DNA from: Raillietiella orientalis
Taxonomy: Eukaryota
Direction of reading: 5' to 3'
DNA length: 64,000 nucleotides
NCBI GenBank assembly: GCA_036172245.1
Contig: JAYWIR010000011.1
Location: 1,550,001 to 1,614,000 of the forward strand
Numbering within the stretch: position 1 is the stretch's first letter; every line of letters begins with the position of its first letter. The position numbers and the translations under genes were made by a program. Shown here piece after piece: positions 5,840 to 60,430 of the stretch. A model generated the notes under the pieces. It was not told the DNA's origin, did not search any database, and worked only from the letters and a program-made list of their open reading frames with translations.

Positions 5840-6100
5840 ATCCATCGAAGCTGAGACTGGGGCAGTTGGATGTGATATTTGGGCAGGGCTTTTCATCAGA
5901 TGTTTCAAAACTATGAATAATTGTTATCGAAAGAATATCAACTTGGAATAGACAAAATTGCTTACTAACAACTGCGAGTAAGTGAACTCTTATTCACTAT
6001 AATTCATGAATTGCTGCAACTTTCACTACGGAATATACCAGAGGTCTGTTTTCGGAGACTAGAAGCCATCTGTATACCAAAACGTCTCATTACACATTAT
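5840..6100 (+). mobile_element. Highly decayed non-LTR reverse transcriptase relic
   Basis: Stop-interrupted frames give DVIFGQGFSSDVS (like D.iylDfskAFD.V) and, ~55 codons later, GIYQRSVFG (like GVPQGSVLG). Confidence 0.25.
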
Positions 6101-7499: not shown

Positions 7500-8885
7500 A
7501 TCTTGACATTGGGTGATTTTTGCTGCTGTACTCTTCGCTTCTTCCTTCCGAACTGTGTAATAGTCGGTATATTGAGACATAAGGGGAATAAATGAATGCC
7601 ATGAATAATGCCAACTTGAGGACAGGTAGGTCAGTTGAGTGAGAAGACCCAGGAGTTCCAAGGACCTCCCAAGGTATTCCTGGTTCTCTCCCACGCACAT
7701 TCAGGGCCCACTTACACCTCCGAGGTCCCCTGGATTTGCTCCTGTTTGCGGGCCTCTCGTGGGCTCCTGCAGCCCTGAGGTACTCCAGCTGAATTATTCG
7801 CTGCTGCAGTAGAAGTCACCATTGCACAAGGAAAAGGTTGCCCTTCACCCTTCTTCCATACCGAGTAGCGTGAGTCCGCTCTTGTGTGCACCTCCAGGGG
7901 CAATTTTCGACACCAGCTGCACCCTGACCCGAAGCATGGCTCTGGGTCCGAGCACCGACGAAAACCCTGCAGTCAGGCCGTCCTCTCCTGGTGCTGCGCG
8001 TTTCTGGAGCCCTCTGGTGGCGGAGGCAAAAAGCTCATCGTAGCTTCGAAGATGTTTCTCACCAGCACATCAGAGCTCTTCTGCTACCTATCCTCATCCA
8101 CCCGGCCATAATCATCACCTGATCTGTTCTAGCGGCTTTGCCAGGAGGAGGGTACGTCCTCCTAGAGCAGTGCTTCCCGATACCTCCCGTTTGCCTCCTT
8201 AGGGACCGGAATCGAATAAATCAGAATTCAAGATGGGGCTACCCTGGGAGGGTTCCACCCGATGGATCCAGGATGGACTGGAGTCTATGAAGTCTATCTT
8301 ACTCCTGGGGAGGGACTAAGGGGACTAAGGGGACTTCCACTCTGACTGTCTCCGAAGGGAACCCCGAAGGGAATTTCCTTCATGTTTCTCTCCAGAGGGA
8401 TCCCCGGAAAGGATCCGCTCCTGAAATTTCTTCTCCAGAGGAAACTCCCGCAAGGGAACCGCTGCTTGTTTCCCTCTCTGAACACACATCCCCAAGGGAC
8501 ACTTCCCGTTTTCTCTGAAGGGCGCACTCCGAAGAGGGCAGCGCGCTTCTGATACTCTAGAGAGGCAGCCTCCGAAGACGGTATCAACCGGCCCCATGGC
8601 ACTTGATGGAAGGTCTCCCACCTCTCGCGGGAGGACGGCTTCATTTGCAAAACCGGAGGGGAACCCCGAAGGGCTCCTTGATTCCTGGGGAGACCCTGGA
8701 AGGTCAACTTCCGATCCCGGCCTGTCGACGGGGGCATTGGCTTCCACCGGTGCCGCATCGAAGCCTACAGGCCAACCAGCGCGCCATCCTACGGGCGGGG
8801 GAGGAGGTCACTCGAAACCCATGAAGTAGCTCCTATTTTGGGGCGTCGATCCCTTACGCAACGTTTGGTACCATGCGCGGGCAAA
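7500..8885 (-). mobile_element. L1/Tx1-like family copy: partial tRNA-like head + 5' body + RT-proximal ORF2 relic
   Basis: 8885->8170 aligns by eye with the family head/body (e.g. 14374->14090 and 49316-49900). The minus frame near 8050-7950 reads DELFASATRGLQKRAAPGEDGLTAGF (non-LTR 'KAPGPDG' region), followed by WKKGE. Confidence 0.6.
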
Positions 8886-13409: not shown

Positions 13410-13710
13410 CCCGCAATGAGGCTGCAGTCTCCGAGCGCGTGGTACCAAGCGTTGCGGGTTCGAATCCCCAAGAGGAGGATCGGCTCCAAGAAGTGGAGGT
13501 TGCGTCGTGGGTTCGAGTTCCTCCCGCAGGATGACGCTGGTTGGCGTGTCAGCTTCGGGAGGGGCGCTGGTGCAAGCCGGATGCTCCCTGCTGACTAGCA
13601 GGGGCTGGAAGTCGACCCTCCGGGGTCCTTCCAGGAAAAGAGGACTCATTTGGGATTCCCCTCCGGTTGTGAAGGTGCAGCCCCTTCGGAAGAAACCCGA
13701 TTAGATCTTG
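13410..13710 (+). mobile_element. tRNA-headed element, 5' head and partial body
   Basis: Starts CCCGCAATG, with GTGGTACCAAGCGTTGCGGGTTCGAATCCC (B-box), a second GGGTTCGAGTTCC ~53 nt later, then family body sequence. Confidence 0.65.
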
Positions 13711-13714
13711 AGAC

Positions 13715-14374
13715 GCTTCCCACTTTCTCTGGAGGGCTCTCCTCGAAGGGAGCAGCGCGCTTCTTCACACCTTGAAGAGGCAACCACCAGAGGGGGACAT
13801 CACCCACCTCCATCTTCGGAACTGGATGGAAATTCCGAGGCTCCTTGATTCCCGAAATGACTCTGGGGGGTCCACTTCCTATCCCGGTCAGTCAGCCAGA
13901 GGGACATCCAGTTTTCGGCTTTCAGCAGTGTCGCTCCCGAAGCCTACAGGTCAATCAGGGTCGTCCTTCGGGGGAGGACTCGAAACCCACAACGCCCCTC
14001 CTCCCATCGTCGATGCTCCGGACGGAATTCTGACACTCTGCAGAGGCGACCTCCCGAGGGACGTACCTACTAGATCCATGGCCACAGATCCACTTTTCAC
14101 AACAGGAGGGGAATCCCGAATGGATTTGCTGGTTCCTGGAAGGATTCCGAAGGGTCTCCTTCCTGTCCCGGACGATCAATAGGGGCGTCCGGCTTCCACC
14201 GGGGCCACACCCGAAGCCTACAGGACAAGCAGCATCATCCTGCGGGGGGATCCGAATCCACGAAGCATCCCCCCCATTTCTGGGCGTCGATCCTCCACGT
14301 GGGGATTCGAACCCGCAACGCTTGGTGCCACGCGCGCGCACGGAGACTGCAGCCGCTACGGTCGTCTACGCGGG
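13715..14374 (-). mobile_element. Two tandem partial copies of the tRNA-headed element (14374->14090 and ~14030->13715)
   Basis: The reverse complement starts CCCGCGTAG...GTGGCACCAAGCGTTGCGGGTTCGAATCCCCACGTGG. The body matches 8530-8800 and 13410-13710. Confidence 0.65.
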
Positions 14375-34265: not shown

Positions 34266-36224
34266 AACCCCAACCGTTCCCTGCACAGGATGCGCTATTC
34301 AAATAAAAGCCTACGACTCTTTTTGTGACCTGATGTGACCATGTGCGGAAAGAAAACAAACGAAACAGTCCATTTTCAAAGGGAAAAGCCGGCGGAATTT
34401 AAATTTTATCAGATCCACGACTACGCAAAAACGGTATTTTGAAGCGACTGTTTGCAACCCCGGGGGTGTCTTCTCATCAACACGAAAGGTTCTGCAACTT
34501 CCTGAACTGCAGACTCCGAAACTACTTTTCACGCTATCACTGTGGACAATAAAAACCGTCATTCTCTAAGAATTCGTGCAATCGTATTTTTTCCGCTTCG
34601 CCTTCTGACTTGCACATCATTTCATTACCGATAAGTTCGTTTACCTGTGATGCTAATCCTCACGTCCAATCATATTCGTTCCTTCGGCTTGCGTCACCTC
34701 CCTTTCCGGAGCTCCGAATGGACGCGCGCTTTCCGCGGAACGAGCGAGGACATCTTTTTCCGAGATGTGCCAAAGGACCTACTGCCTGACAAATTTCAGA
34801 TTTCCGGTTCCGGCCAGGCGTGCTGGCCTTGACGTATTTCCCCTCCAACTGAGTGTGAATTCATGCATCCTCCCCCCTCCCCCACCTCCTCCCTTGCGAA
34901 TAGAATTCGGGAACCCCATATCCTCGGAAGTTTGCGAAGCCTGCGAAATTCAGTTCGGAAGTGCCCTCCAGGGGAAGCCATCAACAGTTCGGAAAGGGGA
35001 GAAAAGAGGGAGGGGAAGCGGGGAGCGAAACAAGATAATTAAACATGCTTTTAGTGGGACGAGCAAAAAACGCTGGAGCGGGACGCGCGCGCGATCTGCA
35101 GCACGCGACGGAGTTGACGGCGTCGCACCGGGGGGGGGGGGGGGTGGCGCGGAGTCGCTGCTGCTGGCGCCGCTCTTTCCTCCTTTCCTCCTGCAGCTTT
35201 GTCGCAGTCCGGACCCCGTGTTTACGGAGGGGCGGTTGAAGCTGAATGTCGATACGTGCGACGGCGGAAAACAACGGCAAATTAAAAAAAGCAACCATTT
35301 CGAAAATCGAGGGGTTTCGGTTTTCCTGTTTCGTATCCCTCCTCCCCCCCCTCCCCCCAAAAAAGCCGTTCGGAATTCCTCCTCGAGGTCCTTCAATTCA
35401 TCCCCACCTTCTGGAAGGAGTGATCTGAACCGCTCTTCGTTTACTCCTTCGAAGGGCATTCCTGAGTTGATTGCGCAGCTGTTCCGGAGGCGTTCTCCGG
35501 GAAGCTGCCTCTTGCTAACCGGGATTGGGGGAAAAAAAAATAAATAAAAATAAATGAATAGATGTGGCACGCGCGCGTCGGTGAAGGGCACGCGCCATGA
35601 AGCTCTGCTTCCGAAGGGGGCGAGTATTCCAATAAGCTCCGAAGAAAGAAGGAAGCTGCTCGAGGATTCATTTCTGCTCCTCCCGGCTGCTCGCGGGGGC
35701 TGCCATCGTCTGCGTCTGAGGGCAGCTGCTTGGCTGCAGCGGCATCCACTCGTCGTCGGCAAAAAAAAAAAGATCGGGAACCAGACTCGCTCCAGGACGG
35801 GGACTCCCTTCGAAGACCAGTAGGTGCGGAAGGAATGGGGGTCATACTGTGCTTCTTCTTAAGAGGGGAACGGGAGAGGTCCCAGCGACCACCCGGGTGA
35901 TCTCACCAATGTTCCAAAAAGATGAGAAAGGGGCTCATGAGCTCCAGAGTTCAGCGCCGACTCGGCTTCGATTTTGCACGGAGCGCACCTTCGAATGGAG
36001 ACTCACCGGACGACGCCCGATCCCTGCACCAGCCCTTGGGCTGCGTTCCTTCGTCTCCTCACTCGGGCGCGTGAGAAAACGACCGCGCTGGTGCGCCGCT
36101 CTGCGTCCAGCCACCCACCGGCGCCTTTGCTTCCACGAGCTCACACCAGAGGCGCTTCCCGAACGTGCTGCTCAAGGTGGGAACGCGAGGCGGCCAGCGG
36201 GAGTTCGCCGTCCCTTGCTTTCCA

Positions 36225-36535
36225 TCCGGCTGCGCCGGGGCGTTTATTCTTCCAATAAACATCTAAAAGATCTGTGGCTGAACCCGTGGTACAGCCACGT
36301 GCTAGATGTTGAAAGCCTGCGGGGTCACCGGTGTGCAGACCGGTGCGGTCCACCTCGGCAGCAGAGAGAAGGGGGTAAAACAAAAACAAAAAAATAAATA
36401 AAAAAGCTGGGGAGGGTGCGGGAAGGGATTTCAGTCTGCTGGTTTGGGGTCCGCCACATCCTTTGGAGGATGCGGGCAAGCTGTTGCTGGATATTGGATT
36501 CCAGATGGGGCCATCGCATCGCCATCCTCAAGAAG
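36225..36535 (-). mobile_element. L1/Tx1-like 3' end (ORF2 C-terminus + 3' UTR)
   Basis: QLARILQRMWRTP C-terminus, T-rich UTR, and AATAAACGCCCCGG-CGCAG-CCGG terminus. Confidence 0.6.
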
Positions 36536-36538
36536 CGG

Positions 36539-37100
36539 CCCGCGTCGGAGGCCTTGTGGTTAAGGCTTCCGCGTGTGGCACCATGCGTCGCGGGTTCGAA
36601 TACTTCGGCAGAAACTCTGATGCCACTGCGTTGTCGAGTTCCGAGTTTCTCCTGCAATGGCGCTGGTTGGCCTAATCATTCGGGTGTGACACTGGCCGTG
36701 GATTAAGCCGGAGGCCCCCAATGAAGGCTAGAACAATGGGAAATTGATCGTCGGGTCTTCCCAGGAATAAAGGAGTGGAGAGTTCCCCCTCCGGTCGTGC
36801 AACGGAGAGCGGACCCTCCTCACCGAGAACCCCTCCGATTTCAAGATGGAGCAGGGGCCCTCACGGGCACCTCTCCAGTTGTTCAAAGGAGCGGACCCCC
36901 CCCCCCTGTTGCGAGGGGACCCTCCGAGTCGTCGCCTCTTCACAGAGTGCAAGGAAGCAAGCGAGAGCGATTCCCTGCGGGAAGCTGCAGCTCCCCTTCT
37001 AAGTTTCGGAAGCTTCCCTTCGGGGTTCTCTTCAGAAGAGTGAACAGGAGCGGTTCCCTTGCGGGTTCCCTCAAAAGAAGCAATTCCTCAAGAAGCGGAC
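36539..37100 (+). mobile_element. tRNA-headed element, head + body
   Basis: CCCGCGTCGGAGGCCTTGTGGTTAAGGCTTCCGCGTGTGGCACCATGCGTCGCGGGTTCGAA (tRNA-His-like, GTG at the anticodon position). The body shares CCCTTCGGGGTTCTCTTCAGAAGAG..AGCGGTTCCC with other copies. Confidence 0.65.
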
Positions 37101-39260
37101 GGCGTATTCGCTGGCATCCCTATCACTGGGTCCTCCCGTCTCGTTGCTTCATGCAGCGATGATCCCGCGTAGGCAGCACAGGGCTGCTAGCGAGGCCGCT
37201 GGCGGCAGAGCGTCTCGAACGAAGAGGGGTCGAATAGCATCTCTGGGGTTGCCTCCGGGGGTTTCCAGGGCCGCGGTAAAGCGTTCCTACAGGGGCCAGA
37301 GGGCAGCACAATTCATTAATAAGTGGGGAAGGGATTTCCTCTCCACGCACCTAACACAGTTGGGGTCGACACCCCTCCGCGTCCAGTGGTGACGGCGGTG
37401 CTGCATGGGAGACCCCAATGCAGACCCAGCAGTGCCGACTGCTGCCACTTCATGGGGAGGGTGCGCGAATCCATGAGCACCGGGAGCCACTTGAGATGTT
37501 CCTCCGCAACATCCAGTAGCTCGCCCCAGCGCAAGAGTCCGTGTGTGGTAGTACTCGGGGTCGCAGCGTTGGCCAGCTGGCCCGTTCTCCATTTCTCGAT
37601 CTTTTTTTCCCTCCATGAGATCTTGATGCTAACCTCCCATTCTGTCGCGATGTCTCTGCCTAGATGCTCTCGGAGGGTAGGCAGTACCGCAGCAAGGGAG
37701 GTTCTTCCTGCCCACGCTCTTCTTCGGGGATCTTCGACGATCTCTCGGAGCGTGCGGTGGGCGTGCGGCCCGAACAGAGCTATTGTGTTGCGGACGTTGC
37801 TCCTGAGTCATCACCCACATGCGAACGGTTTCCTGCAGCCAGGCACTATCATTCGCGGGGCGTATGAAGATCGATCCCGTGATGGTCTTCACGAGTTTGG
37901 CCGCCCTCCGAAGCTGAAGTCCGCAGTGGCAGATGGGGCTCCGGAGTGCAATTTAGGACGAAAGTCCCGCGTTGTCAGTGGCCTGCTCGACAAGGAGGCG
38001 TGCAGGGCCGCACCAGGTGGTGTTCCAGTACTTCGCCATAAAGGCAACTATCCGGAACTGGAGCTGAAGCTCCACCCGCTCCAGCGTCAGGAGGCCGAGG
38101 TCGTCGTCCCTTGCGGACTGGAGGAAAACAGGAGTGGAGGAGCCCCCTTGCAAGAAGCCCACCGGTTCGTTTCCAAGCAACCTCGGTAGCCGCCCTCGTG
38201 GAGAGCCGCCACGGGGACGTCTGATCCCGCGGGGCGGGGGCAGAAGAGGAGGAGGGGACGGATGAGCTACGGCACTGCGGAGGATTCGGGGTCCCGACGG
38301 TGGACTGCTTGTCCTAGGTGCACAGCTTGCGCCATGGCCAGCAGCTCCCTCAGCGACCCTGCTCCCCTCTCACTCACCGCTGACCACTTTTTCGAGTGTA
38401 CGGAGACTCCCCCAGCACCTCCGGAAACCGTGAGAGATGGTGCAGCTTCTGGATCTCCGGGACAGTTTCCCTGGGAGGTCAATGCTGCCGCCGCGTGCTG
38501 TGGATTTCCAGGAGAGCCGCATCCAAGAGGAGGGAATTCTTCGAGGTCCCTGAAGGATTGCAGGTGGTCGACGCCGCTTCCAAATAGCAGCAGAGAAGCG
38601 CCAAAGAGGTCCCCCTCCCCTTTCCCCTCACCAGGGCCAAGTCCTCGCAGGGAGGAGTGCGACTTCCTCTCATCGGACGTTGTCCAAGACATGTCTACTC
38701 CAGCTGCTTCCACGGTCCTGCCTGCCTGGGTACTCTCAAGCCAGAGGGAACGGCGCCTTCCTGGAAGCGAGGTGAGGGAGCTTTCGGCTCTGCCGTTCCC
38801 TTTTTTTTGGTTCTCAAGGAGTGCTGAAGAGCCGTTCGCCTCCTTACGGTGTGTTCACGAAGCTCTCTAAGCACCGTGCACTCCACCAGAGGGTGAGTGA
38901 CTCTTCGAGTCATAGAGGGTGACCCAGGAGGGGACCACCCTGTGAATCCAGGAAGGGCTCCTGAGGAAGGAGCGAGTTCCTCTCACTCTTGGTAGGGGAA
39001 CACCGAAGAGAACCATCTCTTATTCTCTTATTCTCTCAGGATGGATCCACCCAGAGACGGAGGGCACCTGCAAGGGAGCAGCGCGCTTCTCTCCCTCTGC
39101 AGAGGCAACCCCCTGAGGGGGATATCAGCCAGCTCCATGGTTCGGCATCTGGGGAACCCGCACCGGAGATACGAACAGTTCGCATTCAACCCTCCCTCCT
39201 TCCTCCTCCAGCCCTATACCACCCGTGTTCTTTGAATGACCAGCGGACTTGCCGCCTGCG
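37100..39260 (-). mobile_element. Internally deleted L1/Tx1-like copy: 5' body + low-complexity ORF piece + post-RT + zf-RVT
   Basis: 39260->38780 matches the family body. Then DDDLGLLTLERVELQLQFRIVA..KYW and LPMKWQQSALLGLHWGLPC..HHWTRRGVDPNCVRC.ERKSLPHLLMNCAALWPL. Confidence 0.65.
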
Positions 39261-40016: not shown

Positions 40017-40175
40017 CCCGCGTTGGCGGCCGTGTGGTTGCAGCGGCCTCCGCGCGCGCAGCACCGAGAGTCGCGAGTTCGAATCCCGTCCGGGAGAAGG
40101 GTTGACGCCGAGAACAGGGTGTGCATCGTCTCGAGTTTCGAGTTCCTCCAGCAGGATGGCGCCGGTTGGCCTTAG
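40017..40175 (+). mobile_element. Isolated tRNA-like head of the element
   Basis: CCCGCGTTGGCGGCCGTGTGG (A-box-like)...GAGTTCGAATCCCG (B-box), then a second TTCGAGTTCCTCC. Confidence 0.65.
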
Positions 40176-40199
40176 CTGAATTCGGGATCGGCACTAGTT

Positions 40200-41330
40200 G
40201 ACACCCGGTCACACCGGTGCGTTTATTTATAAAAAATAAACATAGATGTCTGTGGCAGGACGTTTGGTACTGCCACGTTACTTATAACCACGAGAAGGAA
40301 CCTTCCGGGATCTGGCACGCAAGCCAGCGGGGTTCGCCTCAGCAGCACAGGGGAAAGGGAGACAAACAAAAAGGAAAAAACAAAAAACAAAAAACATACA
40401 GTCAAAAAAATAGGGGGGGGGGGTTCGAGAAGGGATCACCGGGTGTTGGAGGGTGTCCTCTGTATCCGTGTAAGGATGCCGGCAAGTTCCTGTTTCAAGA
40501 CTCCCAGATGAGGCCATCTTGACGCTATCCTCATGAAGAGGACAGCAAAATAGATGGCGCCCCTGTCGTCCTGGCCTCTGGCGTTGCTTCATGCAACTAT
40601 GGTCCCACCGCGTGGGCAGCAAAGTGGGCGTGAGGGCGTCGCACAGTAAGAGGACCTTCAAAACGTCTCTGGCGTTGCCTCCAGGGGTTCCCAGGGTCGC
40701 GGCAAAGTGTTCCCAGAGGGGCTGGAGGGCAACGCAGTCCACTAGGAAGTGCGAGAGGGATTCCCGCTCTCTGCACCTTGCATAGTTCGTGTACACCCCT
40801 CCCCCTTGTGTCCAGTGATGCCGGGAGGCGTTGTACTGGAGGCCCCAGTACAGCAGCATCAGCGCCGACTCCTGCCACTTTAAAGGAAGGGTGCGGGTGT
40901 TCCTGAGCACCGGTGGTCACTGTGGGTCTTCCTCCGGAATACCCAGTAGCCCGCTCCAGTGAAAAAGTCCTCGCGGCGGACCACTGGGGATCGCGGCACC
41001 CGTAAGCTGGTCCGTCGTCCACTAGCCCAGTCTCTTCTCCTTCCGGAGATTTCCACAGTAACCTCCCATGTTGCCGCGAGGTTGCTGTCCATGTGCTCCC
41101 TAAGGGAGGGCAGCGCGGCGGCGAGGGAGGTTCTGCTTGCCCGTGCACTCTCTTTACGGGATCTTCCAGGATCTCTCGGAGCATGCAGTTGTTGCGCGCG
41201 TACAGGAATCGTGGCACCCGTTCCGCTCTTGGCTCCTGGATTCTCGTCCACGTGCGGACGGTTCCCTGCAACCAGGCCTTGGTGGGATCCGGAAACCGGA
41301 TGCTCCCATTGACTGGTCGGGATTGGAAGT
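40200..41330 (-). mobile_element. L1/Tx1-like ORF2 3' part + 3' UTR
   Basis: LPLKWQESALMLLYWGLQYNASRHHWTQGGGVYTNYARCRERESLSHFLVDCVALQPLWEHFAATLG (zf-RVT-like). Terminus AATAAACGCACCGG-TGTGA-CCGGGTG at 40227->40202. Confidence 0.7.
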
Positions 41331-41334
41331 GGAC

Positions 41335-41600
41335 TCTGCGGGGTTCTTTTAGGAATTGAAGAGACCTTCGGTGTTCCCCTCCGATTGTGAAAATGGAGCT
41401 GTACCATGGAGCTGGTGGATCGATACTTCTCCAGGGTGTGAAGAAGCGCGCTGTTCCCTTCGGGGAAAGACCCTTCAGAGAAATTTGAGAGTGTCCCTTC
41501 GGTGTTCTCTTCAGAGGAGTGAAAACAAGGAGCGGTTCCCTCGCAGGTTCCCTCCGGAGAAGAAATAATGCAGGGTCCTCCGGAGGCAACCAGGGAGAGC
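41335..41600 (+). mobile_element. Family 5' body fragment
   Basis: Matches 49540-49760 and 36990-37080 (CCCTTCGGTGTTCTCTTCAGAGGAGTGAAAACAAGGAGCGGTTCCCTC). Confidence 0.55.
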
Positions 41601-41724
41601 GTCCTCTCCCAAGCGTAAGAGGAGCAGATTCCCTCCTCCGCAGCGCTTCCATGATTCATAGGGTGGTTCCCTCGCGGGGGGCATCCCCTAACTTAAAGAG
41701 TCAACTGACGATCTTTACGAACGA

Positions 41725-41945
41725 AATGTGTGTGGTGCGGGTCAAGGCACATTCCAGAGTGACCTCCTCGTCCCGGAGCTTCCAGGTCCCTTCTTCCTCG
41801 GGTGGGCGGATGGGGACTTTTCGCGGTCAGGCAGAGCGTGAGCGTGCCGGTTCGGAGGGAAAGCTACTGCTCTCGCCGGGAATGGAACTGGGTCGGGAGC
41901 AGAGGAGAAGGACTGTGGGCTAGTCAATAAAGAGTGGCATGGGAC
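41725..41945 (+). repeat. ~220-bp repeat (second copy 44940-45160), possibly an RTE-type LINE 3' end
   Basis: The two copies share CCAGAGTGACCTC..GTCCCGGAGCTT..GGATGGGGACTTTTCGCGGTC and end in AATAAA. The 44940 copy translates RWTD...ELSREQWRRTVG, resembling RTE ORF C-termini. Confidence 0.45.
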
Positions 41946-43019
41946 AGAGTGAAAGCGTTCCGTGAGCTCCCGGGCGAACGGTTCTTGAGTGTCTAGCGAA
42001 CCAAAAAAAAGAAAACCCCGAAAAAAAAAAAAAAAAAAAAAAGAAACCTTAAAGGAAAACGGCGGAACAGAAGAACTCAAAAGGATTTCCGCTACTTCGG
42101 GCCGAGTGCCGCGACCGGAGCAAGAGGTCGCGCATCTTGCTCTCGGCTCCCGTCCAAACAACCTCCCTTCTCCCTTCCCTTCTGTGATTCGGCGAGAGAG
42201 TTCATGAAACCCGAGCAGGGCGGGGAATTCGCTGCAGCCCTCTGCTGATTCAGCGATGCGCTCTCTTTCGGGTTCCTGCAGATGCGCTCGCCTTTTGGCG
42301 GGTGCTGCGTCCCACGCACCGCAATCTTCGCGGAAGAAGATCCGGCAGCTGCCAGGTCACGAGGGGGAGGTGCTTTTGGCCACTTGGCAGCTCCGCGCAC
42401 CCCACCCTGGGGGTGAACGAGGGAGTTTCCCTCTGTGAGAATACGGGACACCTCATTTCTCGTTCCATGGTAATCGGCGTCGTGGTTTGCTGTGGGCAAC
42501 TCGGCAAACCACACCGTGGCTCGACGCGTCGGGCCGCGAACCGTTGCGCACCATTCTCGATCGCAGACCACAGTGCCGGTTAATTACTTGATTCTCTTTG
42601 AGATAGCGCTCTTCTACGCATGCTCATCACCGACATACACGGGGGAGGGTGTGCTGGATCCTCGGAAAGGTTCTGGGTGGCTCCACAGGGAGTCTGTCCT
42701 CCCTGCGGGAGGCGAATGGTGGTTGCCCCTTGGCGGGAGGAAGGCTACCTGCACGGTAGCGGGAGGGACCGTGCTCCTGGACGGTTCGAGGACGCGAAGA
42801 CTCCTCTCCGAAGGCGAAAACGCGGCTCGGTACTTCCTGGCATCTCCCCGGAAGATGTGGTGCTGCCCTTCGCGTGCTCGGGCGGCGAGGTGCGTCCTCT
42901 GTGTCCGGTGAGGGAAAGGTCGAATCCAGCCCGCTCCCGCTACTGGAGCGAGTAATGAGCGGGTGTTGGTGGCCTCCTTAAAGCAGCTGCTCTAAGAATG
43001 GGTGCCGACTTCAGGTCGA

Positions 43020-49315: not shown

Positions 49316-50870
49316 CCTGCGTCGGAAGCTACGTGGCTGCAGCCACCGCGCGCAGCACCGAAGGTCGCGGGTTCGAATCCCACCAGGGGAAGGATCAACG
49401 CCAGAGAAATGCGTGCGTCGTGGGTCCGAGTTCCTTCCGAAAGATGAGGCTGGCCGACCCATAATTGGGTGAGTCACTGGTAGAAGCTGGTCAAAGCCGG
49501 ATGTCCCCGATGAGTGGCCGGGAACGGGAGTCGACCCTCCGGGATCCCTCCAGGAATCAAGGGGTCGGTTCCCTTGGGCGTTCCCCTCCGGTTGTTCAAA
49601 AGAGCCGCGTATCCATCTCGTTACCATGGAGACGGTGGATTGATGACACCTCTTCAGAGTGCAAGAAGAACAGAGAGTCCAGAGAAAACTTGAAAGCGTC
49701 CCTTCGGGGTTCTCTTCAGAATGGGAAACAGGGAGCGGGTTCCCTCCGGGAGAAGAAACTCCTGGAGAAGAAAATCCTGGAGCGCGGATCCTTACCGGGT
49801 TCCTTCCGGAGAACAAAATGAGGAGTGACCCCGCTCGCCTCCAGGGTTCCCTCTGGAGAGAATAAGGAAGAGGTTCCACTTACGGATTCCCCTACCAAGC
49901 GCGAGAGAAACGGACTCCATCCCCCGTTAGCCCCGTCCTGGACTCATAGGGTGTTCTTCTCCCGGGGTTACCCCCTATAACTCGAAGAGTCAGCACGCAC
50001 CCTCGGGCGGCGTGGACAGCGTGAAAGAACTTCGTGAGCCGCCAAGAGAACGGCGGTTCTTGAGGCGCTCGGTGGACCAAAAAAGAAGGCTACCCGAAAA
50101 AAAAAAAAGAAAAAAGGAGAAGCTGGAATGAAAGCAGAGAAGATAGAAAGGAAAGGGTCCCAAAGGATTTCCACCATCCCAGGCCCATACTAACGATCTC
50201 TTCGTGGGATCGCTACTGGTCTGTTTGCAGACCTAGACTGACGCCTTCGCCAAGGAGCACGCTGGAAGCTCTGACTCCCTTTCCATCCTCCAAAGGGTCC
50301 CTTCGACCTTACCCCAAGCAGGTGAGGGAAACGAGAATCTCCCCCTCCCACACCTCCCCGTGGACTGTGCCGCCCTCCGGCTCCTATGGGAACGTTTCGG
50401 AACGACCCTTTATATCCCGGCTGGCACCCCCGGGGACGTTTCACGGCCCCTCTTTGTGCGCGACCCCAGCAGCTTCTTTCTGCATCCGCAGGATTGCAAC
50501 AGTCTGGAGCGAAGCCAACGGAGGAAGAAACGAGAGGGACGTCGTCCAGTTCTCAGTTCTCTTTCTGCAGCGTCCAGCGTCCAGATGGTCCCACCTGGGA
50601 CTTATTCGGACGGATCTAGCCGAATCCTGGAAAGGATGCAGAGGACTCCCTTTAGTAAACCCTCTCGAATATTTTTATTTATTTTTCATTTCATCTTCCT
50701 TTTGTTTCCCCCTCCTCCCCTTTCGCTGTCAAGGTGACCCCCACCGGTCTGCGTACCGGCGACCCGGAAGGTCCGCGGACAAACGAATTGTGGTCGGACC
50801 ACGCGTCCTACTACAATCTGTAAGTTTCTTTTACACTTTAGGAAACACCCCAGCGTTGACGGTGGAAATA
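49316..50870 (+). mobile_element. Complete-looking non-autonomous composite element (tRNA-like head + ~800-nt body + ORF2 tail + 3' UTR)
   Basis: Head CCTGCGTCGG...GGGTTCGAATCCC; body to ~50180; then DCAALRLLWERFGTTL..ILERMQRTP and a T-rich UTR. Confidence 0.65.
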
Positions 50871-52429
50871 GACCTTTACCCCGGTTTGGTGCCTGAATTC
50901 AACCTTCCCTCCTCACCGTCGCTGACCTCCTGACGCCCGTCAGGAAAGTGGAGAGGGGGGGGGAATCGTGTGGGATGGGTTTCGCAGGCTCGGAGTGTTT
51001 CAGGAGTAGCTGCCTGCTCGAGGTGCCACCTCCGGAGCCGCGCTGGAAGACCCTCGAGGCGTCTGCCGAGGTCGCGCGTCAGGAAGTCACGTCTGAGAGG
51101 AAAAGGAAGAAAAAAAATTCTGCCACCTCGATCTTCCGGGGTGCGCTCTCAGAGACCCGTCTGCGGTGGTCCTCTCCCCTCCCTCCCCCCTCTCCCTTCT
51201 TTCCAAGGGACCGCGTCTGCTGGCAGAACTCCGGGCTCCTGATCGGAGGCAACCGGAAGGGGGTCCACCTGCTTTCCCAGCGGGGCAGCGGAGGCTGATC
51301 CACCCCCGCGGGAGCGAGGGGAAGCGCGTATTCTCCTTCGCCCTCCTTCCTCCTCCCGCCTTTTCCCCCGCCGCTCTCTTCCCCCTTCTCGGAGTCGTCG
51401 TCGTCGTCCCCTTTCCGCGGAGCGGCGGGCGGGCGGGATGTCTCGTCCCTCGTGCGTGTGTGCACATGCACACGTCCCGTCCGTTTCATTACGCATGGAT
51501 TTTCGTGACGACACCTCCCGCGCTGCGCGGGGAGGAGGTCGGGCTGGAGGAGTCGCCCCGCGCGCGCGGCTCGTCCGCCCGCCGGCGAGCGCGGCTCCCC
51601 GCTGCTCACGGCCGGGCGGCGGGAGCGCCGTCTCAGATCCCTTCCTCCTCCCCTCCCCGCTTCCGGTGCTGTGCTGTTCGGGGCAGCGAAGGGGAGGCTG
51701 AGGCGGGATGCGCGACAGCATCCTCCGGGTATCCCAGTAACGAAGGCGTGCCGCTTCCAGGTGGACGCGTTCCACTCGCCGGAAGTGATCAGTGCGAGCG
51801 GGCGATGGGCCGCCGCGGACGGTGGAGGTTTCGGCTCGCCGCGGACTCTCCCGTTTCCCTTGGCGACCTGAGTGGTGGCGGTGCAGCGACGGCCCTCCTA
51901 GAATGAGAACGGCAGTGTCCAGTGATTCCGCCGCTCCCAAGTCGGAAGGAGAAATGGACGCGCTTCTTCTGGGCAGGACTAAGGTGAGAGAAGAGAGAAG
52001 GCCCGCTGAGCGCTCGGCTGACCCGAGGTCGGCGAAACTGGAGGGAGAGTCACAGCTCCCGCCAGACGGCGCGCCGGGGCGGGGAAAACTTCGGGACCCT
52101 CTTCCGGGACCTCTCGCGGAACACTCCTGAGCCCTTCTCCCCCCTCCCCCCCCGCGACGCGAAAGGGGGGTGGCGGACGAAAACGGCACCCCTTCGACTG
52201 GGTTCGGAATCCTTTCCGGAGCTTCCTGGAGCGGAGAGAGCTCCGTTCCTCTCCCGGCGTGAAGGAGTGGAGGCAGCTGGCGAGAAAGAGCTCCATTCCT
52301 CTCCTCACCCCATCCCTCCCTTATTTTTTTCCCTACTCCTCCTCCTCCTCACAAAGAGCCGGAGCTTGCAGAGGGAGGGGCTAGCGGACACGAGACCGAT
52401 GGACACGTAACCACCGGGAGCGCCGCGGT

Positions 52430-52700
52430 GTGTTCGCGAGAGTCGTTCTCGAACACTCTGGGGGTCACTGGCGCGAGAGCAGGAGGAGGTCACCCTGCAG
52501 GACGCGTGGGAACGGAGGGAAAAAGGGACGTACGGATGCCACCCTCGCCTCCGCCGCTCCTCCCGCCCGCGGCGATCTCCTGCGCTCTCCCCTCGCGGAA
52601 GCGATCGATGACGGCGGCGGGAAGGAGAGACTGACCGACGACCCCCCGCGCGCCGCAGGCAGTGAAACCTCGCGCGACAGGAAGAGGGCAAGGGTCTCGG
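52430..52700 (+). repeat. ~270-bp diverged direct repeat (second copy 55727-56000)
   Basis: Both copies share GGAGGAGGTC.CCCTGCA, GCGGCGATCTCCTGC..CCCCTCGCGGAAGCGATCGATGACGGC.GC.GGAAG and CAGGAAGAGGGCAAGGG. Confidence 0.7.
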
Positions 52701-53639
52701 GATGTCATTCGGACTCCGATCCTCCAGTCAGCCCGGTCAACCGGGCGAGCGCCACAGCTACAACGTCCCGATCTGCGGACGTCGTCCAGCGCGCAGAGCG
52801 GGTGGGGTGAGGAGGACACCAGAGTGCATGTGTGTGCCTTCCATTCCCCTTGCCGGGATCTCCGAATCCTCGTCTCTCCCCCCCTCCTCGGACAGAGGTC
52901 CTGGAGCGAGGCGGGTGTGGGAGCGCTCGAACGCCCGCGCTTTCCTGACCCTTAAGGCTTTGCAGGCTGCGGACTCCTCGGCCTTTCGCTGGGCACTCGG
53001 CCAGGAGGGAGGTTCATACAAACTCCACGCGGCGTAACCATGGTCCCCACGGTGAAGATGTATGCCGAGGGAGTGCCGCGGGAGTTTCCGGTGCGGCGTG
53101 CCAGAATAGGCGGCCGCCCTCAGGCCGTCCGCATGGGTGATGCCTCCTCTGTCTTTCCGGAGGAAGATCTCCGGACATCTGGGGTGCTTGAGGCTGCCAA
53201 CCCATCGTGCCAAGGTCTCCGAAGACGTGTGCGCGCGATCCCCAGTAAGCGAGACGGTTCGGAAGGTCTCCCTCGTGCTGAATAGCGGGTGCCGCGTGAC
53301 TCCACGCCGCGGCCGGAAAGTCGCAGGTGGACGACGGCGGCGGGGGACGAAGTTTGGTTCAGCGCCTGGAATGACGGACACATCCCTTCCCCTCGAGGAA
53401 GGAGCGAAGAGGGCAGGTTACAAGGAGCACATGTGGCTGTCGGCCGCTGAGCGGACGCAGGAAGCGCGGATCCACCCGTGGTCAAGAAGGCTTTGAAGAT
53501 GGAAAGGATGGATCGATCCCCATCTCCGGAGGAAATTTCCTCCTGTCCCAGTCACATTCTCCCACCCTCACCGTCGTGTACAGTCGCCGTTGTACATTTG
53601 TACTCATCCCTGTGCAGTTACCGTTATCGGGAGCGGTTC

Positions 53640-54900
53640 GAGAGCGTTGCCAGGTGGTGATGCATCTCGTGTGCGTGCGGAGCGCGTCCCGCCTCGCGCG
53701 TGTCCCGCGCGCAAAAGCGCGGAGAGGGGGCGATGACGGTTCTTCCTCCATTCCTGAAGCTGGCTCGTAGGAAGAAAGTCGAAGAGGGTGCCTCGAGAGA
53801 CATCTTTGGTTTCTTGTCGCCCTCCACGTCAAAAGTGTCGGTGGGGACCAGAAACGAGAGCCGCGTGCGACCCCGGTCGCCCAGCGCCGAGAGAGCACAG
53901 ACGCCGCGGTGAGCCTGCCGCCTTCTCCGAAGGCACGGAAGCGTTGACCGAGCAACCACACCCGCAAATCGGTGTTGCCCAGCAGCCACCCCTCTCCGCC
54001 GGACGAACGTCGTGCTGACGTGTTCTCGAAGGGGGGCGAGGTCGGTTGGAAGTGTGGTCTGAGTGCATGATGCAGCGAACAGTCGGGCAGAAGAAGCGTT
54101 CCCTTTCGTTTCGAAGCGCTCAGAGGTCATCCTTGTTTGCGGCCGTTGTCGAGCGCTGGGTCAGATCCCTGCGGGCGCAGGGAAGTCCATCCTGGCGATG
54201 CGCCCAGATGTTGCCTCGAGGGCGTCCGGAATCCCGAATGGAACCTCGGGAAGATCTCAGGGCGCGAATCGGCCTGAGCCGCCAAGGGAAGGCAGAAGCC
54301 GATGCGTGGCTTCTGCTCCTGGAGACCGTCCAATCTGAGTTCGTTGCCGCGGGAGATGGAAGAAGCCGGAAGGTGATGCTAACGCGAAAGCGAAGGCTGC
54401 CGTCATTTGAGGACGTTTCGCTGCCGCCGCGTGCACCAGCTGGCGGGCGCTCCATCGCCCGCGGGCTGGTTCCAAAGCGGAGGGTGGGGGGGAATGAGGC
54501 CCAAGAACCGCTTCCTGTTGGCTTGCGTGTCCTGCTGAAGTGCCCGGGGATTGACAGGCGCCTCCGACGGGAGCTTACGAAGCTCCTGTTCGCCGAGCGC
54601 GAGAAACTACGAGGGGGCGGCCGGAGATGTCGAGGGCCATCCGCGGAATGAGGCGCCTCCGAAAAAGAGGGGATTGGGTCGGGAGAGGGAGCACCGCATC
54701 GCTCGGGGTGCTATCCACTCCCACGTTTGCCCCTCAAAGTTGCACGGTGGCCTCCCCCCCGCGCGCCACTGCGACGTTTCCTCGAGAGTGACCTCAGCAC
54801 ACCTGCGCGAGTCATTTCTTATTCAGGGGAACGCGGGAATATGATTGAAGGCCTTCAGGTACCCCCGCGTTTGGCTCGAAGTGTTCGGCCCGTAACCACG
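53640..54900 (+). mobile_element. Degenerate Buster/SPIN-type hAT transposase
   Basis: Colinear relics: ASRDIFGFL (like TTg.DIF), STDAA (like TDGA), ECMMQR (like HCiiH), VVERWVRSLRAQG (like VVk.VNfIR) and GLSRQGK (like WLSRGK). Confidence 0.4.
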
Positions 54901-56109
54901 GCAATTCATTACGGATGCAGAAAACTACGTCAAGACTCCCCTGAATAAATCATGGGGAGGGGGGCAAGGGAAACGCGGCCGTTTCTGAGCGACGGGTCGG
55001 TCGGCGCAATCCGAACGGAAAGTAGTGGTTCGCTTCTTCTTGCGCGTTCTCCGGCCGTGGATCGCTCGCCCACCCCCTTCCCCGCTCTGCCGAATCCCAG
55101 TGGCTAAAGAGGCGGTGGGGGTGGTGGAGGCGGTGACGTCCTTAGCGATCGATTCACGGAAAGCTCCAGATGACACCGCATGTGTTCCGGGTGCCGAGGA
55201 GGACGTTCGAGGCGAGCTCTTTACCTACATCTCGATGGGTCCCCCCCATCTGCGTCGAGAGCACTAGAAAGAATGGAGGACGGCTTGTAAGTGCGAGGGG
55301 AAAGGAGGAACCTCAGCTTGTAGACCGCGCTTTGCAAAGGCGCTCACTTCTTGCGGCTGGTGCCGGCGCACACGGCTTATAATCCCCCCTCCCCCCTCCC
55401 CGTTTTTTTTTGTTTACCAGGTCCGTCAGCTCTTCTTGGCAGCGTGAGCGGAGGGGCGGTCCTTGGTGGCGGGCGCTCGAGATCGGCTGGGCGAACCGAG
55501 GGCGTGCGTTGCAGCAGCCTACTGAAGAACTGCATGCGCGCGCGTCTTCGCGATCCCGTTCTCCGGTCTGCCACGAAAACTCCTGGTTCTTCGGAGCGGC
55601 CACTCTGGCTCTCGGCTCTGGGCGGACGGGCGGGCGTCCTCGGTCATCCGGTCGCCCGCTCCATCCGCGGAGGGAAGGTAGAGAAGGAGGTGGCAGGTGG
55701 TCCCGTCGGGAGCGCAGCAGCAGCGGGTTTGCGAAAATCGTTCTCAACCCTGCTGGGGGTCGCGGACGCGAGAGCGGGAGGAGGTCGCCCTGCATGAAAG
55801 TGCGGGAACGGAGAGGGGAGAAAGGGGCGGGTGGACGCCTACGCCCAGCCGTCCCCCGCCCGCCTGCGGCGATCTCCTGCCCTCCCCTCGCGGAAGCGAT
55901 CGATGACGGCAGCAGGAAGCGAGACGAATGGTCCGGTGACCTCCCCCCCGCGCGTCCGCTCGGGAAGCGGGACCTCGCGCTGCAGGAAGAGGGCAAGGGC
56001 CTTGAGCTCCGTCCCGCAGGCCAGAGCTGGTGGTGCACGGAACCTCCGGCTTTTTGGGGGGAAACAGTTTGCGCCCCTCTCCGAGTCATGGCGCCCGGTC
56101 TCGCGTCAG

Positions 56110-56400
56110 GTAAGACGCGGTCATTTTCACAAACCGATGGGAACTCCGGAAGGCTCCTTGATTCCTGGAAGGATCGCCCAGAAGGTCAACTTCCAAATCC
56201 CTGCCACTCGACGGGGTTTCCACCAGGGTCGCGCCCGAAGCCAACCGAGGTCCATCACGCCATCCTCGGGGGGAGGGGAGGAGGGAACTGGACATCCACG
56301 ATGCGCCTCCCATCTCTCGGAGTCGATGCTTCCCCCGGGGGGGATTCTAACCCGCGACGCTTGGCACCGAAACTCGGGGAGGAGCCGGTGGCGGTGGCGG
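56110..56400 (-). mobile_element. tRNA-headed element, degenerate head + partial body
   Basis: The reverse complement reads GGTGCCAAGCGTCGCGGGTTAGAATCCCC...GGAAGTTGACCTTCTGG..CCAGGAATCAAGGAGCC, as in 8880->8670. Confidence 0.55.
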
Positions 56401-57219
56401 CTCCTCGCTCTCTCCGCGGGCCACTCGGAACGAGTGCGAGTGAGCGAGCAGCCCTGCGTCTCGGGTGACGCGGCGGTCTCGGCAATCTTCCCCAGGAACG
56501 GAAAGCGGCGTCCGAGAGGCTGCAATCAAATTTAATGGAAGCTGCGCGCCCTCCCTCGGTCCTCCGCCGCTTCTTCGGAGCGGCGTCCAATCCATCAAGT
56601 CCACTCGCGTCCACGGCCGGAGCATCCGAGGTTCCTCCGACTTCATGGAAGGGAAAGGGAGACGACTCCCCCCTCCCTCCGTTGCAAAGTGTCAGGGACA
56701 GTCGAATTCTTTTTTTTGATTTAGAGGACTGGGACGCTTCCCTGGAATTCCTGAGATGCGTGCTAATCAGATTGCTTTCGGATCTTCTCCGTAGACGTTC
56801 GTCTTCGGAAGCAGTTGCTAACGTGCCGTTTTGTTTCCTCCGGAAAGCCGGGTGCGGGTCCTCGTTCCCTCTCCAACCTCCCCCCCTCAAACCTCCATCT
56901 TCCCTCCCCTTCCGTTGACTCCGGGTCACTCGTAGTTTCCCGGGGTGGTTCCCAGGGGGCAGGGGTTCTCTTCCGCGGGCGCTCTGCTTTCGCCCCCCAC
57001 GCACCCCCCATCTCTTTCACGGAAACCACCGCCGCGCGGAAGCCTTCCTGGTAGCGCCGGTAAGCGGAGGGAAACGACGTCCGAGGTTGGCGCTTCTCTC
57101 GGAAGGGGTCGCCTCCCTTTCCGCTGTTGAGAGAGTCCGGGCCGGACTCTTAGCCACTTTCGGAGGAAAGTGAGGAGCAGGGAAAATTCCATTTCTTCCC
57201 CGACTTGTCAATTATTCAG

Positions 57220-57400
57220 GGCTTCGCTTCGCTCGCGCGTGACTCGGCAGGGACGAGGATACGCCCCTGGGCATTCTACGATTGTCGGCCCTCATTTCGT
57301 ATGCACGTGGCTCCAGATTCGAGGAGCACGCCATTCGTATTAAAGAGTTCCTCTCTTCTCTTCTCCTCCCCAATCAGACGTTTCCCAGCAATCAAGGGAG
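57220..57400 (+). mobile_element. Buster-type hAT fragment (first catalytic Asp region)
   Basis: RDEDTPLGILRLSALISYARG...IKEFLSSLLLPNQT resembles DESTD...qLl.yvRy...ikEefL...L...T. Confidence 0.35.
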
Positions 57401-57644
57401 GAGCGGGGTTCTGCGGACTCTAACCCTCAACGCGGATGCGCCCGTTCGGCCGTCTTCGCGGGCGGGCGCCTCCGGGCGAACCCGCGACAGCTGCCGCCCT
57501 GGGACGCCACCCGTCCGCAGGCGAGGAGGAAAACCCACGAATTTGGGCCGCACTCCGCCTGCTTCCTTCCTTCAGCTCCTTCCGAACGAGTAGCAAGGGA
57601 GCGCGGGCGCACTTCCGCGGCGGCCCCAGCGAGAGCGGACACAC

Positions 57645-58620
57645 GTGACCTGGGTTTATCACTCTGGGATGTTTATAAAAATAATAAACATACATGTGTA
57701 GGGCCATCGGCCCTAGTTGTCCGAAAATGCTCGGAACCTGCCGAGTAACCGGAACTCAGGTCGGAGGGATTCGCTTCGGCAGCGAAGGGGGGAGGGGACA
57801 AACAGAAATAAAAATAAATAAAAAAAGAAAACTGTGGGGGTCACGGCAAGGGATCATTGTCCGCTGAAGGGCGTCCTCTGCATCCTTTCCAAAATGCCGG
57901 CAAGTTCCATCCGAGTGTGCACCAGTGGGGTCATCCTGCTGCCGTCCGCAGGAAGCGCAGGACGAAGCAGATGGCGTTCCTGTCTCGCTGTCCTCTTCCT
58001 CTCGCGTAGCTCCAGGCCTGCTGGGGATGCAGCAGGTGAAAGGGCATCGCGCACGAAGAGGCATCCCTGGAATTGTCCGTCGGTGCACCAAGGGCAGTTG
58101 AGTAACGCAACCTCAGGGACCGGAGGGCAACACGGTCAACGAGCAGATGCGGAAGGGATTCCGGTTCCCCGTACCTGCAGCCCCCCAGGTCCAGTGAGAG
58201 AGGCGGGAGTTGCACGGGAAGCCCCAGTGCAGCAGCAGAAGTGCCGAATCCTGCCATTTCAGGGAGAGGGCCCGGTTGTTCTTCAGCACTATGAGTCACT
58301 TGAGGTCTTCCTGTAGAATTTCCAGAAGCTCACCCTAGCATAATAGTCCTTTGGTTGGGGTACTTCAGGTCGCAACGTCCGTGAGCTCCCTCGGGTCCAG
58401 CCACCTAGTTCCTTCGTCTTGTGACTGATTTCGCAAGTGACCTACCATTTGACAAGCTGGTTACTGCCCAGGTACTCCCTGAGGGAAGGCAGTGCCGCGG
58501 TCAGGGAGGTTCTTTACGCCCACGCGCACGTGGTGGGCTGCACAATGACGTCCTCCAGCGAGCGGTTGCTGTAGAGCGAGGGCAGAGGTCGCTGCCGCAT
58601 CCCCAGGCTCGCTCCGTTCT
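57645..58620 (-). mobile_element. L1/Tx1-like ORF2 3' part + 3' UTR
   Basis: GCRYGEPESLPHLLVDRVALRSL and LVHTRMELAGILERMQRTPFSGQ*. The UTR is homologous to 44705-44900. Confidence 0.65.
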
Positions 58621-58748
58621 GTTCACGTGACCTGGGAGTTCCTTCCTACCCCGCCGGCTGTTTCTCCGTTTGACGCAACAACAGAAAGCAGAAAAAGTTA
58701 GTCTCCAGGCACTCCCATTAGAACATTGGTCTTTAGGATGATGATTAT

Positions 58749-60430
58749 CACCCGGTTGTGCCGGAGCATTTATTACATAAAATAAGAAAAATACATTGGT
58801 GTGGTAGAACACTTGGTTCTATCACGTGCGATGAACCTGCCGAAGAGTGGCGCGCAGGCCGGCGTGGTCCGCTTCGGCAGCGCGGGGGAGGGAAAAACAA
58901 AAACAAGAAAAACAACCACACAAAACAGGGGAGGGGAAATTTTACACAGGGAGGCGGTTGGGGGACCGAGGAAGGGATCACATTACGCTGCCAGGCATCC
59001 TTTGCATTCCGTCGAGGATGCCGGCAAATTCCGTCCGTACATATCACCTAGGTGAGGCCATCTAGAGGCGGTCTTCGGGAAGATCTGCACCCAGTGGATG
59101 GCGTCCCTGCCATTTAGGCTCTCTTCTCCTGGCGTTCAGCCTGCCGTTGTGGTCCCTCGGAGACAGCAGAAGCCTGTGAGGGACGCGGTTGGCGGCAGTG
59201 CGGCACCACGCACGAAGAAGCGTCTGAAAATGTGGGACTGCCCATTGGGATACCTAGGATCATCCCGAGGTGATCCCAAACGGGTCGAAGGGCAGCACAG
59301 TCTAGAAGCATTTGCGGGAGGGTCTCCTTCCTCCGCACTTGTCATACTGAACGTCCACGCTCCCCCACCCCCTTGTCCAGTGGTGAAGACGCGCTTCGCG
59401 TGGGATTCCCCCTATGCACCATCAGGAACGCCAATTCGTTCCACTTGAGGGGGAGGTGCCTCTGTTCCAGAGATCTGGGGGCCGCTTCACTTCTTCCGGA
59501 GGGATTTCGAGCAGCTCTCCCCAGCATAGAAGTCCTTAGGGTGGGACATTCGAGATTGCAGCTCCTTTAGGGTGCTGAAAATCCTTTCGGGTTCTTCTGC
59601 TTCCCTGTTTTCCTTCCAGCTTTTTTTATTTTTTTGGCCGCCAAGCGCCTCAAGAACCGCCGTTCTCTTGGCGGCTCACGAAGTTCTTTCACGCTGTCCA
59701 CGCCGCCCGAGGGTGCGTGCTGACTCTTCGAGTTATAGGGGGTAACCCCGGGAGAAGAACACCCTATGAGTCCAGGACGGGGCTAACGGGGGATGGAGTC
59801 CGTTTCTCTCGCGCTTGGTAGGGGAATCCGTAAGTGGAACCTCTTCCTTATTCTCTCCAGAGGGAACCCTGGAGGCGAGCGGGGTCACTCCTCATTTTGT
59901 TCTCCGGAAGGAACCCGGTAAGGATCCGCGCTCCAGGATGTTCTTCTCCAGGAGTTTCTTCTCCCGGAGGGAACCCGCTTCCTGTTTCGCATTCTGAAGA
60001 GAATCCGAAGGGACGCTTTCAAGTTTTCTCTGAAGGGCGCTCCCCGAAGAAAGCAGCGCGCTTCTTAAAACTCTGGAGAGGCAACCCCCGAGGGAGGTAT
60101 CAACCAGCTCCACGGTACACGATAGAGGGTCCCTTCCCGTGAGGGGAGACAGCTCCATTTTCATAATCCGAGGGGAACCCCAAAGGGCTCATTCATTCTT
60201 GGAAGTACGCTGAAGGGTCAACTTCCAATCTCGACCAGTCAACGGGGCATCCGGGGTTTTCGGCTTCCACCAGAGGCGTACTCGCATAGGACAACCAGCG
60301 TCATCTTGCGGGGGAACACGGAACTAGGACGCACCCCCCGTTCTCGGCGTCGACCAGGTGGGATTCGAACCCGAGACGCTCTGTGCCACGCGCGAGGAGG
60401 CCGTCGCAACCGCACGGCCGCCAACGCGGG
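58749..60430 (-). mobile_element. Second complete-looking composite element (head + body + zf-RVT tail + 3' hairpin), inverted relative to 49316-50870
   Basis: Head CCCGCGTTGG..GGGTTCGAATCCC at 60430->60359; body to ~59560; LPLKWNELAFL..KETLPQMLLDCAALRPVWDHLG; terminus AATAAATGCTCCGG-CACAA-CCGGGTG. Confidence 0.65.

Follow-up and report, generated by a model that had tools for sequence, protein, structure and literature searches.

L1-group LINE lineages probably insert at fixed sites within a tRNA-headed SINE-like repeat of Raillietiella orientalis

The closest described counterparts of the system examined here are the Tx1-Mar elements of crocodilians, target-specific long interspersed nuclear elements (LINEs) which, according to the parts of PMC4494074 available to us, occupy two hot spots in Mariner-N4_AMi, one in the opposite and one in the same direction, used by different families, and whose insertion independence is shown by 5′-truncated copies. 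The same parts of that source describe other crocodilian Tx1 families that prefer long terminal repeat (LTR) elements, Harbinger or microsatellites, as well as Tx1L in Tx1D (Xenopus), Keno in U2 genes and Kibi/Koshi in microsatellites, and credit the choice of site to the endonuclease; the portion of PMC8869645 at hand names "other TEs" (transposable elements) among the known targets of target-specific elements. The locus analyzed in this work is a stretch of 64,000 nucleotides from Raillietiella orientalis (assembly GCA_036172245.1, contig JAYWIR010000011.1, positions 1,550,001 to 1,614,000 of the forward strand), hereafter the window, which forms part of a searched genome of 210 Mb in 491 contigs. 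It contains copies of a tRNA-headed repeat resembling a short interspersed nuclear element (SINE), called the SINE below for brevity, along with 5′-truncated LINE tails. A preliminary description had proposed either that head and tail form one retroelement or that a LINE inserts behind a tRNA-derived SINE. Our analysis strongly favors a third picture, in which the SINE-like repeat stands apart as an element of its own and L1-group LINEs of two lineages, S and A, insert at their own fixed inner sites, likely by endonuclease recognition.

As with Tx1-Mar, so far as those parts of PMC4494074 describe it, non-LTR elements sit at fixed places in another repeat, with sense and antisense sites divided by lineage. 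Unlike Tx1-Mar, which has a DNA transposon as its target, the elements here strike a tRNA-headed retroposon, their sister lineages strike coding motifs of other LINEs, and their placement is as L1-group only. Tx1L, Keno, Kibi and Koshi, as the same source presents them, are target-specific like S and A, but at different targets. What is seen here is a known habit of target-specific LINEs with a SINE as a new landing pad, and it extends such LINEs to a SINE target with lineage-specific site and orientation and to the coding motifs of other LINEs. No SINE-targeting LINE was found in the literature by title and abstract, with most subscription papers, Repbase and Dfam outside this scope, and the target tables of PMC4494074 may list SINE targets. 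Loss of the proposed composite retroelement removes the most surprising claim made for the locus; for annotation, head and tail neighbors in this genome are to be split into SINE and LINE.

Lineage S was sampled by its tail only, reading the flanks of 20 of 41 matches. The SINE lies directly 3′ and in the same direction in 16 of these 20 copies, ten of them at TCGGAGACAACC and six at a degenerate or neighboring repeat unit, and the S 3′ end is joined to TCGGAGACAACCAG (SINE profile position ~570). In genomic S copies the SINE resumes past the tail. The SINE follows only one of 35 unclassified LINE ends (40 rows minus five reassigned to S by eye) and none of five ends of a further lineage, D. 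Across the genome, TYGRRG follows 17 of 30 exact S ends, where chance gives ~0.2% and a reversed-pattern control gave 0, and a search with the 24-mer junction returned 19 S matches against 0 for its reversed control.

Lineage A enters the SINE elsewhere and in the opposite orientation, its 3′ end being joined to the reverse of TCGGGTGCGGCACTGG at position ~165. Genome-wide, 108 of 248 exact A ends are followed by CYAGYG (chance ~0.1%), and 34 of the 248 match a 16-nt degenerate SINE flank, with control counts of 3, 0 and 0. All four A copies with a SINE flank that were read in context are antisense at ~165, and one copy has a junction duplication of 13/13; of two more A-clade copies, one is at SINE position ~94 and the other is not in a SINE. 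Both S and A, the latter by its 6-mer test, exceed the 20% of flanks in one repeat that PMC4494074, in the text available, uses to call a LINE target-specific. The preliminary description was thus right to suspect specific insertion at the SINE, but misplaced it: both sites lie inside the element, ~570 in sense and ~165 in antisense, and not behind it.

The target of a tail matches its clade in the tail tree, with supports of 0.99 for S and 1.0 for A, as also for the sister lineages B and C. Some members of the S clade were picked by their junction, and therefore the tree speaks for coherence and not for frequency. In 17 of 20 tips lineage B lies within other LINEs, antisense in their ORF2 (open reading frame 2) at the linker codons LRGVTLRNL; it is young (97% identical to its own consensus) and forms tandem arrays at one site. 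Lineage C sits antisense at the reverse transcriptase (RT) motif DLRKAFD of other LINEs in five of six tips, and one copy, with a 14/14 duplication, lies at the SINE B-box, where the TTCGA of the usual RT-motif target also occurs. As a separate observation, dense arrays of intact LINEs occur at loci L146-L157 and L061-L080 (small contigs and contig ends), with B in the ORF2 linker and C in DLRKAFD. The Zepp and ZeppL L1 LINEs of green algae pile up in nested clusters, and this nesting resembles the B and C arrays, except that in the present arrays every lineage keeps to a site of its own, mostly in antisense orientation. The ORF2s of B and C are 77% identical and their targets differ, and the intact elements would allow a direct test of the endonuclease residues that set the target. 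A broader reading, which we put forward tentatively, is that a small L1-group clade has radiated so that each lineage is directed by its endonuclease to an address of its own in some other retroelement: the SINE for two of them, and for the rest conserved ORF2 codons of competing LINEs, which are hit in antisense and inactivated. One lineage would read the TTCGA found both in the RT motif and in the tRNA B-box. If true, this clade would offer a natural set of closely related apurinic/apyrimidinic (AP) endonucleases with different long targets, and it would include LINEs parasitizing their own SINE.

The contrary proposal takes the tRNA-like head to be the 5′ end of an autonomous LINE, from which head+tail derivatives of ~1.6 kb would arise, and starts from two window copies in which head, body and tail run in one direction. 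In the first, a complete SINE, made up of a tRNA-like head, a body with internal repeats and an A-rich 3′ part that ends in GGATTT, occupies 49316..50170 (+), as judged by profile and reading. A 5′-truncated lineage-S tail consisting of the ORF2 zinc finger and 3′ untranslated region (UTR) follows at 50316..50868 (+; profile, tree and tblastn). This tail is a separate insertion ~145 nt past the SINE end, bracketed by its own duplication: the 5′ copy TCGACCTTACCCC at 50303..50315 (+; 7/8 ungapped, extended by direct reading) comes after GGGTCCCT, which resembles the lineage-S target, and the 3′ copy TAGACCTTTACCCC lies at 50869..50882 (+). In the second, a complete SINE at 59579..60430 (−; profile) adjoins with its 3′ end a 5′-truncated tail of a non-S lineage at 58745..59564 (−), which has a duplication of 12/14 at 59578-59565 and 58744-58731. 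Identity between the two tails is 64%, and the tail tree places them apart, so that they do not make up one bipartite family, and no single duplication brackets head and tail together. Window copies likewise have no common head-tail junction.

Selection by head gave the converse result. Among 20 head copies (of 40 scored hits, a sample that under-represents copies split at position 165), 19 have no LINE 3′ match within 1.8 kb, and the remaining one has a scrap of ~100 nt. The intact relatives of the tails are ~5.5 kb long and carry ORF1 and ORF2 with Exo_endo_phos, RVT_1 and a weak zf-RVT (below cut-off in lineage B); no head was found upstream of ORF1 starts in any of 43 rows, which are redundant, two to three queries having matched the same starts, and one row shows a SINE 3′ piece only. 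The top RVT_1 loci proved to be other LINE families without a head. In favor of the captured head, U1/U2 heads are known on some Tx1-Mar families (PMC4494074, in the parts available), and no full-length S or A is among the elements seen. With heads free of tails, no headed ORF1 start, a SINE that resumes after the tail, and tails of two lineages each with its own duplication, we regard this proposal as barely credible. The preliminary description had itself listed separate duplications, independent occurrence of the parts and the lack of a tRNA covariance hit as grounds for giving it up, and these are what was found. The composite retroelement is accordingly rejected, and the two bipartite elements of the window are probably off-site or end-of-SINE insertions. 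They also differ from the tRNA/LINE-1 chimeras of mammals as presented in the accessible part of bioRxiv 10.1101/2025.02.02.635956, in which tRNA-like sequence, mostly antisense tRNA halves, lies 5′ of a truncated L1 as a single event within one duplication; the SINE and LINE parts here have separate duplications.

Among solved structures, ORF2 is nearest to human L1 ORF2p (E 8e-49, vs 1e-14 for R2). By this comparison the tails are assigned to L1-group LINEs, S and A being linked through the homology of their tails. The RT relatives listed, which are ~30% identical and mostly unnamed, include no named Tx1 reference and so do not bear on the Tx1 affinity suggested earlier. A second L1-like family, seen at L061, L063-L065, L067, L069, L070, L076, L077 and L079, ends in a conserved terminal hairpin (ACCCCACCCC...TGGGAC.TGGGGAAAA) without poly(A), an end similar to the hairpins that terminate the lineages analyzed here.

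Several observations weigh against targeting of an independent SINE by S and A. Four of the 20 sampled S copies (L115, L119, L126 and L130) have no SINE 3′, although at L130 the SINE 5′ part lies upstream of the tail, and the window's own S copy likewise has no SINE after it. The 6-mer test is failed by 13 of 30 S ends and 140 of 248 A ends, which both decay and off-target insertion would fit. The intact headless elements are lineages B and C and more distant families, and no full-length S or A was seen, though longer S-like copies were matched, their upstream DNA unread. On the side of the SINE, one clear target duplication (14/14) was found in 49 heads, plus one poly-A artefact, in copies that are ~17% diverged; a profile search of the 3′ ends of the intact LINE families examined found no partner LINE sharing the SINE 3′ end; and Rfam covariance models gave no tRNA match, whether in the window or among 19 additional head copies. 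The window A copy has no clean duplication at its 5′ junction, and clear duplications of 10-14 nt, legible where the age of a copy permits, were found in 7 of 34 S-type cases, with none in the others by a crude search. Finally, L188 and L202 have a common junction and L200 and L201 a common 3′ flank, and therefore not all S copies are independent events; L042 and L043 are an inverted duplicate. This last pair (G000:C11:1643979, 1659180) is a SINE+S-tail locus ~30-45 kb past the window.

Such pairs, and the few legible duplications, are what would be expected if one or a few SINE+LINE composites had been amplified as units, by retroposition or duplication, in a manner that mimics targeting. We nevertheless consider this quite unlikely. 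Independence was judged by varied 5′ truncation and by own duplications, and both are present: the S truncation points spread from profile position 8 to 704, and the S junction duplications match at 12/14, 11/14, 12/14, 10/12, 10/11, 13/14 and 8/10 positions. Moreover, the S part of the tree is star-like, and some S copies are at other SINE repeat units. The A tails are antisense, and therefore their 3′ ends could not prime a SINE-sense transcript. Runs of T5 are expected to terminate transcription by RNA polymerase III (Pol III). The lineage-S 3′ UTR has such runs at 50672 and 50682, where a Pol III transcript would stop short of the LINE end, which argues against head+tail RNAs as the mobile unit. 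A mere preference for a short motif (for example CCCT/TCGG or C/CAGTG), combined with survival in repeats and without homing to the SINE, could account for the window S copy at a look-alike site outside the SINE and for the C copy in the SINE B-box. It is very improbable, since of the 12 near-copies of CCCTTCGG in the SINE a single one serves 10 of 16 SINE-flanked S copies, and since a short motif would be far commoner outside a repeat covering ~1% of the sampled DNA.

For insertion by S and A at fixed SINE sites, we propose that an AP-like endonuclease would nick the strand opposite the LINE 3′ junction, that reverse transcription would be primed at this first nick, that a second nick would fall 13-14 nt from the first, and that early abortion of most copies would leave tails of 0.4-1.5 kb. 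The scheme follows established target-primed reverse transcription biology and PMC4494074, which in the parts available credits site choice mainly to the endonuclease; the endonuclease would presumably be the cause of site choice here as well. The SINE itself may be mobilized by the same LINE group, as the 14/14 duplication of the window copy at 36539 suggests.

The SINE profile, built from 34 aligned copies, has 858 positions (~860 nt) and runs from the tRNA-like head through a body with the 12 near-copies mentioned above to an A-rich stretch and a GGATTT end. A genome-wide first-look search gave 2013 candidate copies, far above chance, of which the 40 scored are 72-83% identical to the window copy; mean identity to the consensus is 82.5%. 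The S tails, at 86% to their own consensus, look slightly younger by this measure. The 5′ boundary is sharp across 50 heads, and the family behaves as a non-coding, dispersed, independent unit with a fixed 5′ end. The sense consensus has no TTTT, and the 34 copies hold 24 T4 against 71 A4 runs, a scarcity that would be compatible with Pol III transcription without demonstrating it. SINEs derived from tRNA (SINE2) have a tRNA-like head with a B-box and a non-coding body. The present repeat is like them in its B-box head, non-coding body, A-rich 3′ part, lack of sense TTTT, thousands of diverged copies and one clear duplication, and unlike them in its unusually great length, its repetitive body, a second B-box-like motif, the missing covariance match and the missing partner LINE tail. 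Its identity as a solo LTR was dropped because TG...CA ends are missing and the 3′ ends vary between copies and are A-rich. On sequence features, it is likely a Pol III SINE. It covers 856 of 92,187 bases near tRNA genes (0.9%) and 8.2% of the window. A younger subfamily, with 85-90% mutual identity, comprises window 36539-37084 and loci L119, L157, L026, L023 and L151.

The affinity of the head to tRNA is confined to its 3′, B-box half, the A-box being degenerate. When ranked against 51 distinct genomic tRNAs (from 58 of 62 Rfam hits, with one His gene and Leu not sampled), the head is closest to Arg, with Glu and Asp also among the top, and His takes place 34 of 51. The B-box half matches genomic tRNA-Arg with E 2e-4 over the 51 tRNAs, and the best hits have shuffle z of 7-10. 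ARAGORN found no tRNA gene at the heads in the window. The label tRNA(His) given to the head earlier is not borne out by this ranking, nor did covariance scoring, which had been recommended as a check, recover a tRNA.

Other parts of the preliminary description, which is partly confirmed overall, hold well. The eight places it listed are copies of one head+body family by alignment and profile, with hits at 8881-8135 (−), 13411-13693 (+), 14374-14028 (−), 36539-37099 (+), 40017-40201 (+), 49316-50131 (+), 56370-56115 (−) and 60430-59575 (−). The common 5′ boundary (G)CCCGCGT, the B-box GGTTCGAATCCC and the second motif GTTCGAGTTCC ~50 nt further on are all real. So are the ORF2 pieces, identified by tblastn to intact copies: APGEDGL at 8063-7962 and zinc-finger/post-RT pieces at 38111-37152, 50345-50464 and 59565-59157. 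This identification of decayed window pieces rests on tblastn, Pfam having given no RT, endonuclease or zf-RVT match on 17 window frames.

The window copy with lineage A begins with a SINE 5′ part at 40017..40197 (+; profile), which ends at the lineage-A site GGCACTAG; the antisense LINE tail occupies 40198..41277 (−; profile and tree) at SINE position ~165, and the rest of the interrupted SINE (profile 160-713, a gap, then 721-816) follows at 41278..42022 (+; profile). At 36539..37084 (+), a 3′-shortened SINE of the younger subfamily lies inside a LINE between 14/14 direct repeats (36525-36538 and 37085-37098). The LINE that it splits is a lineage-B-like 3′ part with post-RT region, zinc finger and 3′ UTR at 36214..38111 (−; profile and tblastn), and this minus-strand LINE is continuous across the insertion. 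The ORF running from 38200 to 37200, earlier taken as the continuation of the 36539 head, is on the minus strand while the head is on the plus strand; the SINE is nested in the LINE.

The remaining copies are partial or decayed. A SINE at 8135..8885 (−; alignment and profile) has lost its B-box in the alignment, and an isolated ORF2 scrap of 39 aa (ORF2 residues 419-457, E 1e-5), the APGEDGL piece at 7962..8063 (−), lies 70-170 nt beyond it. SINE 5′ parts occur at 13411..13693 (+; profile), 13684..14374 (−; two profile hits) and 56115..56400 (−; alignment and profile), and a partial SINE body at 38794..39148 (−; profile). A lineage-D tail lies outside any SINE at 57659..58619 (−). The duplication candidate of the 49316 SINE is weak (8/10). 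Its body at 49680-50084 (+) and that of the 60430 copy at 60032-59630 (−) are 98% identical over 403 nt while their heads are 72% identical, a contrast that points to recent gene conversion between these two copies, which are inverted and separated by 10 kb.

A further LINE lineage occurs at about one place in the S-tail 3′ UTR (L112 ~5600-6050 and L192 ~1560-2175), possibly an extra target site. At L071-L073, near a contig end, tandem RT elements of another type, which we take to be R2/NeSL-like from their motifs, gave no AP-endonuclease match in the one scanned. Host genes in the window include WDR3-, PWP2- and Rab-like pieces and a BTB-BACK frame at 10463-11728 (−), apparently intronless amid repeats and possibly a retrocopy. 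By its homologues, WDR3 places the host with the animals, none of the matches listed being closely related. Two repeat pairs, 52415-52697/55707-56002 and 41709-41931/44925-45142, are 77-79% identical and were assigned to neither the SINE nor the LINE tails.

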